From the NCBI GenBank assembly GCA_965153355.1, contig OZ231126.1:6448001-6512000 (forward strand): DNA of 64,000 nucleotides. Direction: 5' to 3'. The notes under the pieces are model-generated. The model was not told the origin of the DNA, did not search any database, and was given only the letters and a program-made list of their open reading frames with translations. A program made the translations under genes and the position numbers. The DNA is from Flaccisagitta enflata (Eukaryota). Shown in pieces: positions 19,053 through 31,061 of this stretch (position 1 is the first letter of the stretch; each line of letters starts with the position of its first letter).

Positions 19053-22000
19053 TTACTTTCTTTTTCCGGATTTTGATTTCTTTGCTCCAACAAAGTAAGC
19101 CTTTCTGCGATCATTATCCTTCACCTGACTGGCATAGAGTTTACATGGACCCTTTGCGCACAAATTGCCAAGGTATGACACTTCATGTTTTGAATTTGCA
19201 CGGTCTCCATTATAGTACAGCTCTATTTTTCCTAATCTTTTGTCAACCAGAATTTTTTCCTCAACAAACTTTGCAATTGTGTCTATGGTATCGCAGGATT
19301 GAAATTTCTGGTTGATGGCATCTCCTGATCCTGGGACATCAATTTCAACATCAATCTCCCACCTATCTTTGACATGGATCGAGTGGGTGACCAAAGTGTC
19401 ACATCCAAGGGAACTGATACAGCTTTTGGTCCTTAAAGCGGTCCCTTTCTTGGGGTCAGTGTCACTACCAAGCTTACCCTCATAAGTAACCAAGAGTGGA
19501 TTGTGCTTGTTAACTGGCAGTCTAATTTTGATTTTGCTTCTCAGGGAATCAGCTTCATCTGCGTCATCTGGAGCATAAAAAACTGTTTCACACTCAGTTC
19601 CATCCTCAAGAAAAGCCTTTGCTTTTAGTAATGGAAACTTGGGTATTGCCAGTGTGCCATCTTTCCTTGCTTTGGAGTAAGCCTTATCCTCACATGTCAT
19701 AAATGCATCTGCAAACAGCTTCATATCAGGATCTGGATAGGGTTGAAAGTGGACATCTGCGGCAAAGCTGTGCATTATCAGCCACGGGAAAATATTTCTG
19801 ATCTCTCTGAATATGTGTGGATTTTGTTGTGTCTTAAAGTGAGCAGCTAGATTTCGACCTACTCTTACTAATGCAGCAACACTGCATGTTACCCCACTCA
19901 ATTTCTTTTTGTCCACCTTGAACTTGTCATAGAGAGGTTCCAAGTGCACATTCCAGTTCCCGGTTGTTACCAAAGAATTGTTCCTCTCGAGATTACTGAA
20001 GTCCTTTACATAGAGGGCTGAGCGGTGTTTAGCACTGAGATCCACCATATGCTCTCTGACTGGTCTGACATGCTTGAAAAATTTGTCAAAGGAATCCTTG
20101 GCAAATGTAGGATGTTTCCTTATAATCAATTTATCGCTGATTGGCTTGGTTGTTAGTACCAACATCAAATTTTGTGTCTCAAGCAGGTCTTCCTGAGGTG
20201 GTGGTGGATTTGAAAATGGAGAAAGATCCAACTCACCAACTGGGTACATAGTCCTCATCACTTCAATGGCCAATTGTGTTGGTAAGCAACTCTTCAATGA
20301 TCCACATCTGGCGCCTCGTTTCATGTCTCTTTTACTGGGACATTCTAACGCATTACCATGACATCTAGGGTTTGCCTCATATTTTCCGTGATCACATTCT
20401 AAAGCATTGACAATGCATTCCAGCTTACAGTCTTCATCATCAAGATCAATTCTTGAGGAGAGCTCATTCAGCATAACCCAAGCGGCCTCTTCTAAGATGT
20501 CAGGACTCAGTAGTCTTACCTTTAAACTAACACCCTTGCCTTTGTGATAAAAGTGATTGTGTTTGAGAACAATCTCAATGTTTTCCACTTTTATCACTCT
20601 GGCATTTTCAATGGAAAACTCTACTAGTTCTGAGGAACCCATTGTACAAAGTGTCTCCATGACTGAAAGGACTGATATACAGCAACTGGAGAATGTCCTT
20701 TTTTGCACTGGGCTCTCTAATTCAAAGCATATTGCCACCTCAAATGCCGCTTTTTCTGATGTATGTTCCTGGATCCACAAATCCTGGTTTTCTGATTTCT
20801 GAAACCGTAATTGGGGGAAGTCATACATCTGCAAATCATTCCATTTGTCCTTTATCAGTCTTCCCATTTTCATTGCCCTCAAATGTGCAAGAAATGATGA
20901 AACTGCGGTTAAATCAGCATTTGCTGGGCAGAGTTTGAGATTTTCAAACGTGATTCGAGTTGGGTTTGTACCCTCTGCCAGAAGATGGGTCATGTGCTGA
21001 AACATAGCATGAATGTGCTCTAAAGGCATATGACCCAGAGTGAATTCATGATGCAACGATGAAATGTCAAGCCCCTTCTGGGTAGCAAAACTCCCAAGGG
21101 CTATTTCACTCTTGTGGGTGAAAATAGATTTCAAGAAAATGGAAAGATCCTCAAGCTTGTGGAAGATGGTTGACTTTCTCAAAGGATCATTGGACCAAAC
21201 AATTTTGCCCATAGCACTCAAAGCCCTCAGCATGTAAACTAGATCGTCTTCTTTCATACCTGACTTTTCCAACATCTCAGCAAATTCAACAAATGATTTG
21301 TTTTGGAAACCATTCAATAGCAAGTCAACCATGGGCTGCCATTGATCTTGTATCAGTATTTTTGGCGTACGTGACAAGCAGGTGAGCAGATTGTCCTGAA
21401 GATGATTGTATCCTTCCTTGCTCTTTGTCGAGCTGATGAAGGAAACACAATCTAAATGGAATGTGGGCATATGCTTTACTTTGTTAACCTGCTTGCTGAG
21501 CTTACTGACTGTATGCCTCTTCTCTTTCAATTCAGCTGTTGTTGCATTCAAGCTCTTCTTGTCCGCAGTGGCTTCCACATCCTTTAATTCCTGATCAATG
21601 TCTCTCAGCTTAGCCCAGAGTTGCGCCTCACGTTTTTCTCTATTCTTTCTCAACTCTTTTAACTTAAGCTCAAACAGATCTTTAAGCATTTGTCTCCAAC
21701 ATTCCTTTTTCTCCAACCTTTCCTCCTCTTTGACTGTGTCCATTTTGGAGATGACAATTTTGAAATGTGGGCTGATTGTCCCATCCAAAATCTTCTCAAC
21801 CCACTTCCATGCCTTGTTTTCCAATGTTGCTGGACTGTCGAAGTGACTGGGATTGAGCAAAAGAACATGCAAACCGTTATCTTGACTAAGTATGCCGATG
21901 CACGATTCACACTCCTTGTGTCCTCCAGGATCGACCATTGTCACTTTTGCTGACTTAATGCGGGTAATATGCACATCAAACGCCTGAGTGCGATCTTCCG

Positions 22001-31061: not shown

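Follow-up and report, generated by a model that had tools for sequence, protein, structure and literature searches.

A predicted MFHAS1-type Roco protein of Flaccisagitta enflata with a KEN/HEPN-like domain and tandem ubiquitin-like domains

We analyzed a stretch of 64,000 nucleotides from the genome of Flaccisagitta enflata (assembly GCA_965153355.1, contig OZ231126.1, forward-strand positions 6,448,001 to 6,512,000), hereafter called the window and numbered from its first letter. On its minus strand, between 31061 and 19053, lie two open reading frames (ORFs) that are predicted to be joined by splicing into one gene for a protein of 1508 residues. The predicted product combines an array of leucine-rich repeats (LRRs), a Roc-COR GTPase module, a helical domain resembling the KEN ribonuclease (RNase) domain of IRE1 and RNase L, and two consecutive ubiquitin-like (Ubl) domains. 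We lean toward the explanation that it is an MFHAS1-type Roco receptor in which the death-fold adaptor has been replaced by a HEPN/KEN RNase effector and a di-Ubl unit. The LRR, Roc-COR and tandem-Ubl assignments have the support of the tools used, and the KEN assignment is supported by sequence only, through a conserved motif and profile similarity. The predicted gene is made up as follows, with residue numbers here and below referring to exon 2 unless stated otherwise.

30822 to 31061, minus strand: coding start of exon 1 and N-terminal region of 80 residues, with the ATG at 31061-31059
29994 to 30821, minus strand: twelve near-identical LRR units of 23 residues, encoded by a 69-bp tandem repeat with consensus EIPSSIGEMKALQTLDLSRNKIT
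29933 to 29993, minus strand: end of exon 1, up to the splice donor; opening half of an LRR (LEKVDVSINE)
22451 to 29932, minus strand: predicted intron (GT...AG, 7482 nt), with minisatellites and purine-rich low-complexity arrays
22104 to 22450, minus strand: start of exon 2, with the second half of the straddling LRR (G-LAYLPTLPP), two more LRRs and the NPLxYPP linker
21423 to 22103, minus strand: Roc GTPase, with motifs GEQESGKT, DRTQAF, DPGGH, SKMD and SSTK
20349 to 21422, minus strand: COR region, with COR-A at about residues 365-535 and COR-B at about residues 570-700
20280 to 20432, minus strand: Cys/His-rich linker (residues 673-723), between COR-B and the RNase-like domain
19644 to 20216, minus strand: all-helical KEN/HEPN-like domain (residues ~745-935)
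19839 to 19856, minus strand: RNLAAH, predicted catalytic Rx4H motif (residues 865-870), at the end of a predicted helix
19362 to 19631, minus strand: Ubl (beta-grasp) domain 1
19122 to 19358, minus strand: Ubl (beta-grasp) domain 2
19053 to 19121, minus strand: C-terminal helix and basic tail (...GAKKSKSGKRK), followed by TAA

Roc-COR module, KEN/HEPN-like domain and ubiquitin-like pair

The Roc domain contains GEQESGKT (residues 125-132), DRTQAF (152-157), DPGGH (173-177), SKMD (234-237) and SSTK (339-342), which by our own assignment represent the putative G1 to G5 motifs; a coiled-coil insert of about 95 residues (241-335, positions 21444-21728) separates the last two. A single-sequence search matched residues 85-220, covering the NPLxYPP linker and the P-loop, to the Roc-COR chain 4wnr_A (E=0.0027), and two close homologs, P0004 (30.4 bits) and P0005 (28.2 bits), exceed the Pfam cut-off for Roc. 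Alignment by hhalign of a profile made from the family only with eight MFHAS1-like Rocos gave a probability of 99.9 and E=2.1e-33 over 521 columns. It pairs residues 82-682 with residues 198-774 of P0054 and so runs through COR-A and COR-B, which Pfam places at 505-628 and 682-802 of that protein. This family-only alignment replaces a comparison of our profile A2 with the PDB (CtRoco 9.2e-49, LRRK1/2 ~1e-34), which we left out as support because A2 already held bona fide Rocos and its result is therefore not independent. Profile methods thus recover a Roc domain with intact nucleotide-binding motifs (4wnr_A, P0004 and P0005, hhalign; GEQESGKT, DPGGH, SKMD) and, in the family profile alignment, a COR region directly C-terminal to it. 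The window protein is by sequence comparison a member of the Roco family, for which GTP binding and dimerization through COR are predicted. The ROC GTPase and the COR domain named in an initial annotation, which had been made from the letters alone, are accordingly detectable, profile methods being needed to see them.

The nearest detectable relatives are MFHAS1 homolog Rocos of invertebrates (molluscs and brachiopods), for example those from Lingula anatina, Sinanodonta woodiana and Potamilus streckersoni (P0101, P0071 and P0054). Common to these proteins and the window protein are an N-terminal LRR solenoid, the NPLxYPP element, a Roc domain with DxGGH and, ahead of its last G motif, a coiled-coil insert, as well as COR-A and COR-B and a pair of Cys residues behind COR-B, at an identity of only 16-25% in the shared part. 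In the distant relatives, Pfam LRR, Roc, COR-A and COR-B domains are followed by Death (P0054) or CARD (P0101). The two groups part at the C terminus: MFHAS1-type Rocos end in a death-fold adaptor or in nothing, whereas the window protein ends in the KEN/HEPN-like domain and two Ubl domains.

COR-B is followed by a linker with conserved Cys and His residues, the first Cys pair of which lines up with CPHC in the MFHAS1-like relatives; this linker may bind metal. In the model of the helical domain behind it, RNLAAH stands where predicted helix 113-126 ends, which places an Rx4-6H motif at a helix end in an all-alpha domain; R865, N866 and H870 correspond to R1242, N1243 and H1247 of the 1508-residue protein. 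RNxxxH is invariant in the aligned homologs that cover the motif (18 of 18), at overall identities of 23-40%. HEPN RNases have the motif Rx4-6H as their catalytic signature, and in RNase L's KEN domain both R and H are needed for catalysis, with a contribution of the polar residue after R (PMC3710099). Ribonuc_2-5A (PF06479) was the only Pfam family to recur for the region, with matches at E ≤ 0.1 in 8 of the 30 aligned members; each of the other HEPN families that turned up did so a single time, at E>0.1. One homolog, P0061, lies above the gathering threshold of 23.3 bits (24.5 bits, E=3.2e-5), and others score 22.5 (P0084), 18.1 (P0074), 15.4 (P0041) and 13.8 bits (P0083); in the window protein itself the match covers residues 817-876 and, of the 127 profile positions, 24-81. 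Among named language-model neighbors of P0061, the ten best are all HEPN RNases (among them Csm6 at 0.86, Cas13a at 0.81, and RnlA/LsoA), scores that all fall below the 0.9 level and serve as a lead only.

The last ~190 residues were modeled confidently as two beta-grasp domains (predicted local distance difference test, pLDDT, mostly 85-95). For the pair, the best Foldseek matches were ISG15 (9.9e-8), linear di-ubiquitin and chicken OASL with its tandem Ubl (5.6e-6). The VIA search of the Ubl region gave FAT10 (Z 9.3, root mean square deviation [rmsd] 2.5, 74 residues aligned) and the OASL tandem Ubl 7sbi_B (Z 8.8, 152 aligned), and the family profile matches di-ubiquitin at 5.8e-5. Model, Foldseek and family profile thus agree on two consecutive ubiquitin folds, and the two Ubl-like domains of the initial annotation are clear. 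The arrangement, with two consecutive beta-grasp domains at the C terminus of a multidomain protein, recalls OASL and ISG15; sequence identity, however, is ~10-17%, and a C-terminal LRLRGG or Gly-Gly is lacking. Terminal Gly-Gly is absent from the window protein, and no aligned homolog row ends in it. Since the protein ends instead in a helix and a basic tail, we rejected a conjugatable ISG15-like modifier. Comparison with OASL and ISG15 revealed no link of the window protein to OAS or to 2-5A.

Several results weigh against the assignment of these domains, or at least do not favor it. By Pfam, the window protein itself reaches 13.7 bits for Roc, where the cut-off is 27, and has neither a COR nor a ubiquitin match; its KEN-like piece scores 16.3 bits against Ribonuc_2-5A (threshold 23.3, E=0.011), and the Pfam KEN matches span only positions ~22-89 of the 127 in the profile. 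The AlphaFold model of the domain alone (m300e4926fecc) is all-helical and of mediocre quality (pLDDT 75, predicted template modeling score 0.47). Foldseek listed no KEN or HEPN chain of the PDB for this model (best E 0.4), and an exhaustive VIA search gave CNOT1 as best match (Z 6.2, rmsd 2.8, 76 residues); the best 50 matches listed included neither a KEN nor a HEPN chain. The profile of the RNase-like domain only (A6) found no IRE1 or RNase L chain among PDB sequences at E ≤ 10, nor did profiles A1 and A3, the PDB lists of which were filled by ubiquitin. Of ten proteins scanned singly, five had no KEN match, and an atlas search gave no usable match for the domain. Fold searches with a 432-residue model effectively probed the Ubl domains only, and a two-copy complex prediction of the RNase-like domain, with a score of 0.00, counts neither for nor against dimerization.

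These negatives lend some substance to the view that the helical domain with RNxxxH, instead of being an active nuclease, is an RNA-binding or purely structural HEPN-like module, and that the protein is a scaffold acting through Roc-COR and Ubl, as the Death/CARD relatives recruit adaptors. Such a view would agree with the lack of a structural match to a KEN or HEPN nuclease among the Foldseek and VIA matches listed for the mediocre model, with the subthreshold Pfam KEN score of the window protein, and with the existence of HEPN domains that are noncatalytic RNA binders (PMC3710099). The noncatalytic domains are, however, described in the part of that survey covered here as devoid of Rx4-6H, and the invariance of R, N and H in all 18 homologs, at 23-40% identity, is the pattern that purifying selection on an active site would produce. 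We consider an inactive module unlikely. We call the domain a member of the HEPN superfamily, KEN-like by sequence and unconfirmed in fold, with predicted RNase activity. The KEN-like domain of the initial annotation has thus stood as far as the invariant RNxxxH and the recurrent, mostly sub-threshold Ribonuc_2-5A similarity are concerned, whereas its fold was not recovered by structure search. A DZIP3-type HEPN domain was also considered and was rejected, there being no HEPN_DZIP3 match in Pfam at E ≤ 1.

In IRE1 and RNase L the dimerizing module is a kinase or a pseudokinase. The window protein resembles them in that an all-helical domain lies C-terminal of a dimerizing module, which here would be Roc-COR, and bears RNxxxH with a polar residue after R, and differs from them in lacking a kinase or pseudokinase, ankyrin repeats and any lumenal or transmembrane part. 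Pfam gave no kinase family at E ≤ 1 in either exon product, the KEN-like domain being preceded by COR-B and the Cys-rich linker. Kinase-free KEN proteins are also listed in the HEPN survey (PMC3710099), so that a kinase in front of KEN is typical and not absolute. Given that neither ankyrin nor kinase matches were found in Pfam, the protein is not, judged by its domain content, an ortholog of RNase L, nor is it one of IRE1. The description of the protein as a kinase-free counterpart of RNase L, proposed in the initial annotation, therefore remains a fair functional analogy but fails as a statement of membership, since ankyrin repeats and pseudokinase are missing and the nearest kin are MFHAS1-type Rocos.

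In four homologs (P0061, P0077, P0084 and P0069), the RNase-like domain has an additional insert rich in Cys and His (C...H...C-x-C) within its N-terminal part, at A6 columns ~196-215. The window protein has no such insert.

Gene structure and the variable LRR array

The two halves of the gene lie in minus-strand stop-to-stop ORFs at 29880-31274 (464 residues) and 19053-22538 (1161 residues), between which the other sizeable frames are low-complexity repeat. Exon 1 ends at base 29933, where the donor reads ...AAACGAAG/GTAAGT (final codons GTG GAC GTC AGC ATA AAC GAA G/GTAAGT), and exon 2 begins at base 22450, where the acceptor reads ...TTCTTGCGGTAG/GA CTA GCA. The join of 29933 to 22450 is in phase 1 and in frame and restores a GGA Gly codon. 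The coding sequence spliced in this way and started from the ATG at 31061 comprises 4527 nt, which encode 1508 residues followed by TAA at 19053-19055. The claim that the two ORFs can be joined in frame through canonical GT-AG sites held when sites, phase and coding sequence were recomputed.

Beyond sites and frame, the predicted junction rebuilds one LRR that straddles it, and exon 2 continues into the NPLxYPP linker that is typical of LRR-Roc proteins. In 25 homologous ORFs whose N termini were compared, similarity starts at a (G/D)L-x-x-LP element that adjoins the predicted acceptor, and the sequence preceding this element is mostly unrelated from one ORF to the next; since similarity sets in at the acceptor, these N termini fit ORFs bounded by an exon border. 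In one homolog, P0044, the LRR sequence runs uninterrupted through the junction point. The spliced product aligns with P0044 without a gap across the junction, over 34 more upstream residues with 11 identities, and reaches a local score of 283, against 243 for the unspliced read-through of the intron, the alignment of which begins exactly at the acceptor; because LRRs align readily with each other, we take this comparison as supportive and not as decisive. Among the MFHAS1-like proteins, P0101 is colinear with both exons (residues 114-395 with exon 1, E=2.6e-56; residues 347-794 with exon 2, E=2.4e-12), and P0054 likewise matches both exons in order. The canonical sites and frame, the straddling LRR, P0044 and the homolog N termini, and the colinear relatives together support the predicted join of the two ORFs into one gene for 1508 residues with at least two exons.

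A different gene model, with separate transcripts for the LRR and the Roc-COR-RNase ORFs or with intervening exons, is in our estimation improbable, and exon 2 alone would still encode a Roc-COR, KEN-like and double-Ubl protein. It would sit well with an intron that is long (7.5 kb) and filled with repeats, with close homologs that are all ORF-level fragments starting at the acceptor, with the lack of an in-frame ATG between 31274 and 31061, and with an uncertain true 5' end. Yet exon 2 starts inside an LRR and lacks a plausible start codon of its own, and the junction restores the repeat in the register of the uninterrupted P0044. Both exons are matched in order by single MFHAS1-like proteins, and no further match coding for LRRs is found in or near the intron.

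The 80-residue N-terminal region has no family match in a Pfam scan. As the frame upstream of the ATG at 31061 stays open to 31274 and has no in-frame ATG, additional 5' exons are possible. A (GGA)n run at 31169-31216 reads as poly-Gly in this upstream minus-strand frame, and it could be 5' untranslated region (UTR) or part of a longer N terminus spliced from further upstream.

The repeats of exon 1 are matched by Pfam LRR_8 at E=2.8e-65, and Tandem Repeats Finder reports a period of 69 bp with 12.1 copies and 78% matches. Eighteen of the 23 positions of the unit have an entropy of at most 0.8 bit and positions 14, 16, 18, 19 and 21 one of 1.7-2.9 bits, so that the variability noted in the initial annotation is indeed present and is confined to five positions, all of them x positions of LxxLxLxxNx. 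In solved LRR proteins this segment builds the concave, ligand-binding face. Among units, the pairwise ratio of nonsynonymous to synonymous divergence (dN/dS) is 1.77 at the five variable codons against 0.20 at the other 18, a contrast that is descriptive and not a test, and loses weight accordingly, because the five positions were chosen post hoc from the same data; dS is similar in both sets (0.40 at the variable and 0.50 at the scaffold codons). What the comparison does show is protein-level conservation of the LRR scaffold alongside differences at the x positions.

Family, known systems and possible function

An exhaustive phmmer search of 1.84 billion representatives returned 127 proteins at E ≤ 1e-3, of which 56 reach E ≤ 1e-10 and 20 reach E ≤ 1e-30. 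Near full-length matches to exon 2 were P0004, P0005 and P0006 (34-39% identity), to which word-index searches added P0003 and P0139. A search of proteins of near length gave one relative, the A1 profile search two and the A6 search for longer proteins none, and the PADLOC and NCBIfam libraries returned weak coiled-coil or GTPase noise only. Of 20 clusters examined, the 17 close ones consist of environmental sequences in ENA, JGI or merc records with no functional name, and the three distant, MFHAS1-like ones come from named genomes. The family is sparse and patchy and, as its close members are absent from the named protein records among these clusters, annotation-based surveys would miss it.

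The initial annotation knew of no described protein with this architecture, and we found none either: literature searches, which did not include an InterPro architecture search or the supplementary architecture tables of the surveys, where one could be listed, revealed no fusion of a Roco protein with a KEN or HEPN RNase. The KEN partners tabulated in the covered part of the HEPN survey (PMC3710099) are kinases, ankyrin, CCCH, ubiquitin (in one plant protein) and BRCT, with no GTPase among them, and a 2019 review of Roco proteins (PMC6337361) never mentions RNase, ribonuclease or nuclease. The union of Roc-COR, a KEN-like domain and di-Ubl is thus one that we did not find described, while fusions of a sensor, a switch and a HEPN domain are a known theme in marine invertebrates. 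In the fast-evolving, lineage-specific immune expansions of such proteins, DZIP3-type HEPN domains occur with NACHT, Death, CARD or LRR, and TRADD-N proteins occur with HEPN (PMC3710099, PMC8195603). The window protein would share with them the combination of sensor repeats, an NTPase switch and a HEPN RNase effector, but where they use STAND ATPases or TRADD-N with DZIP3-type HEPN, it would use a Roc-COR GTPase with a KEN-like HEPN. A Roc-COR switch beside variable effector or sensor domains is also found in predicted prokaryotic AP-GTPase (Roc)-COR conflict systems (PMC8195603, PMC7159879), and a Roc-COR switch in the ROCO candidate immune receptors of brown algae (PMC11378527). The covered parts of these sources describe no RNase effector on Roc-COR for either system, and the organisms and the order of domains differ.

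Our working model is that binding of a ligand at the variable LRR face would alter the state of Roc-COR, that the RNase domains close to COR-B would then pair, and that the paired domains would cut RNA, with the di-Ubl serving as an interaction handle. KEN RNase activity relies on dimerization. It also depends on the Rx4-6H residues, and HEPN/KEN activity is independent of metal (PMC3710099). Two considerations count against the model as a whole. The direction of the nucleotide switch is uncertain, as Deyaert is said to have found in 2017 that GTP binding favors monomers in the bacterial Rocos studied. An immune role is what the protein looks like from its architecture, the variability of its LRRs, the turnover of the gene and analogy, and these four are all the basis there is for it. 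The observations of the initial annotation were confirmed, then, while its interpretation is partly supported, in that the architecture is borne out, and ligand-driven ROC-COR dimerization that would switch on RNA cleavage is a mechanism that we infer.

An alternative with little probability in our view is that the protein is an active Roco-RNase that regulates endogenous RNA, for instance by stress-induced decay or processing, with LRRs that bind a host partner, and is not an immune receptor. The KEN domain of IRE1 does act on host RNAs in the unfolded-protein response (PMC3710099), and vertebrate MFHAS1 and the LRRK proteins are not classical receptors (PMC6337361). The focus of variation on the x positions of otherwise homogenized LRRs speaks for a different function, however, as do the local duplication and decay of the gene, the sister families with Death or CARD, the ISG15/OASL-like Ubl pair and the sparse, patchy family; together these features are more in keeping with a rapidly evolving conflict gene than with a housekeeping gene. 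That the locus is a nonfunctional or unexpressed young pseudogene copy, with active members elsewhere in the genome, is very unlikely, for despite a decayed paralog fragment 3 kb away its frames are open over 1161 and 464 codons with no stop, its splice sites, G motifs and RNxxxH are intact, and its LRR scaffold codons have a dN/dS of 0.20.

The reading that we prefer, an MFHAS1-type Roco with an RNase effector, has a bolder form, which we offer tentatively as a serious possibility rather than a probability. The protein may be the first Roco with a nuclease output, an LRR-gated and GTP-switched KEN/HEPN RNase that would act in a marine animal lineage as a self-contained antiviral or anti-parasite sensor-effector, with dimerization by Roc-COR and with the di-Ubl as a signaling handle. 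If so, it would represent a new class of intracellular immune receptors in animals, next to the NLRs, and for comparative immunology a GTPase-switched nuclease receptor would join the sensor-effector fusions of invertebrates. It would also mean that a KEN-type RNase has been recruited to a second dimerizing platform, outside the kinase context. Interest in Rocos stems chiefly from LRRK2, and the way in which Roc-COR governs an output domain attached to it is still under debate. For this field the protein would offer a simple RNA-cleavage read-out of the conformational switching of Roc-COR, and a natural Roco with an RNase output, probably dependent on dimerization, would be an easily assayed model of Roc-COR coupling.

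Intron, flanking sequence and local duplication

Downstream of the gene, on the same strand, lies a remnant of a second copy:

15438 to 15982, minus strand: decayed paralog fragment (exon-2 residues 897-1087), 47-53% identity, in three reading frames

The fragment, which corresponds to the end of the KEN-like domain and both Ubl domains, has no detectable upstream part. Its presence 3 kb from the intact gene points to local duplication and loss.

The intron contains 21-bp minisatellites, (AGGG)n-like arrays, AC/CT microsatellites and 173-bp tandem repeats. A tblastn search of the window detected no further LRR or Roco coding match in or around it, and extra LRR exons within the intron were accordingly rejected. 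One 21-bp minisatellite, with the unit GAGGCCTGAGAGGCCAGATTT or its complement, forms four arrays (23696-24020, 24862-25054, 27498-27731 and 29175-29390) that occur in both orientations and flank two purine-rich (AGGG/GAGGGA)n arrays of ~550-700 bp (24163-24726 and 27798-28679). Taken together, the 21-bp and purine-rich arrays resemble a composite repeat or mobile element that is present in two copies. Two adjoining tandem arrays (25246-25769 and 25969-26491) have three copies each of an AT-rich unit of 173-174 bp, and, judged from their consensus units, they look like an inverted pair.

Past the stop codon, no canonical AATAAA was seen within the first 700 bp. A 30-bp tandem repeat at 18741-18977 (7.9 copies, 66% matches) starts ~75 bp beyond the stop, likely in the 3' UTR. 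Farther along, on the plus strand, an ORF at 4199-4933 matches the C-terminal P-loop domain of phosphoenolpyruvate carboxykinase (Pfam PEPCK_GTP, E=7.1e-40) and is probably an exon of a neighboring gene for this enzyme, which marks the surroundings as ordinary nuclear sequence.

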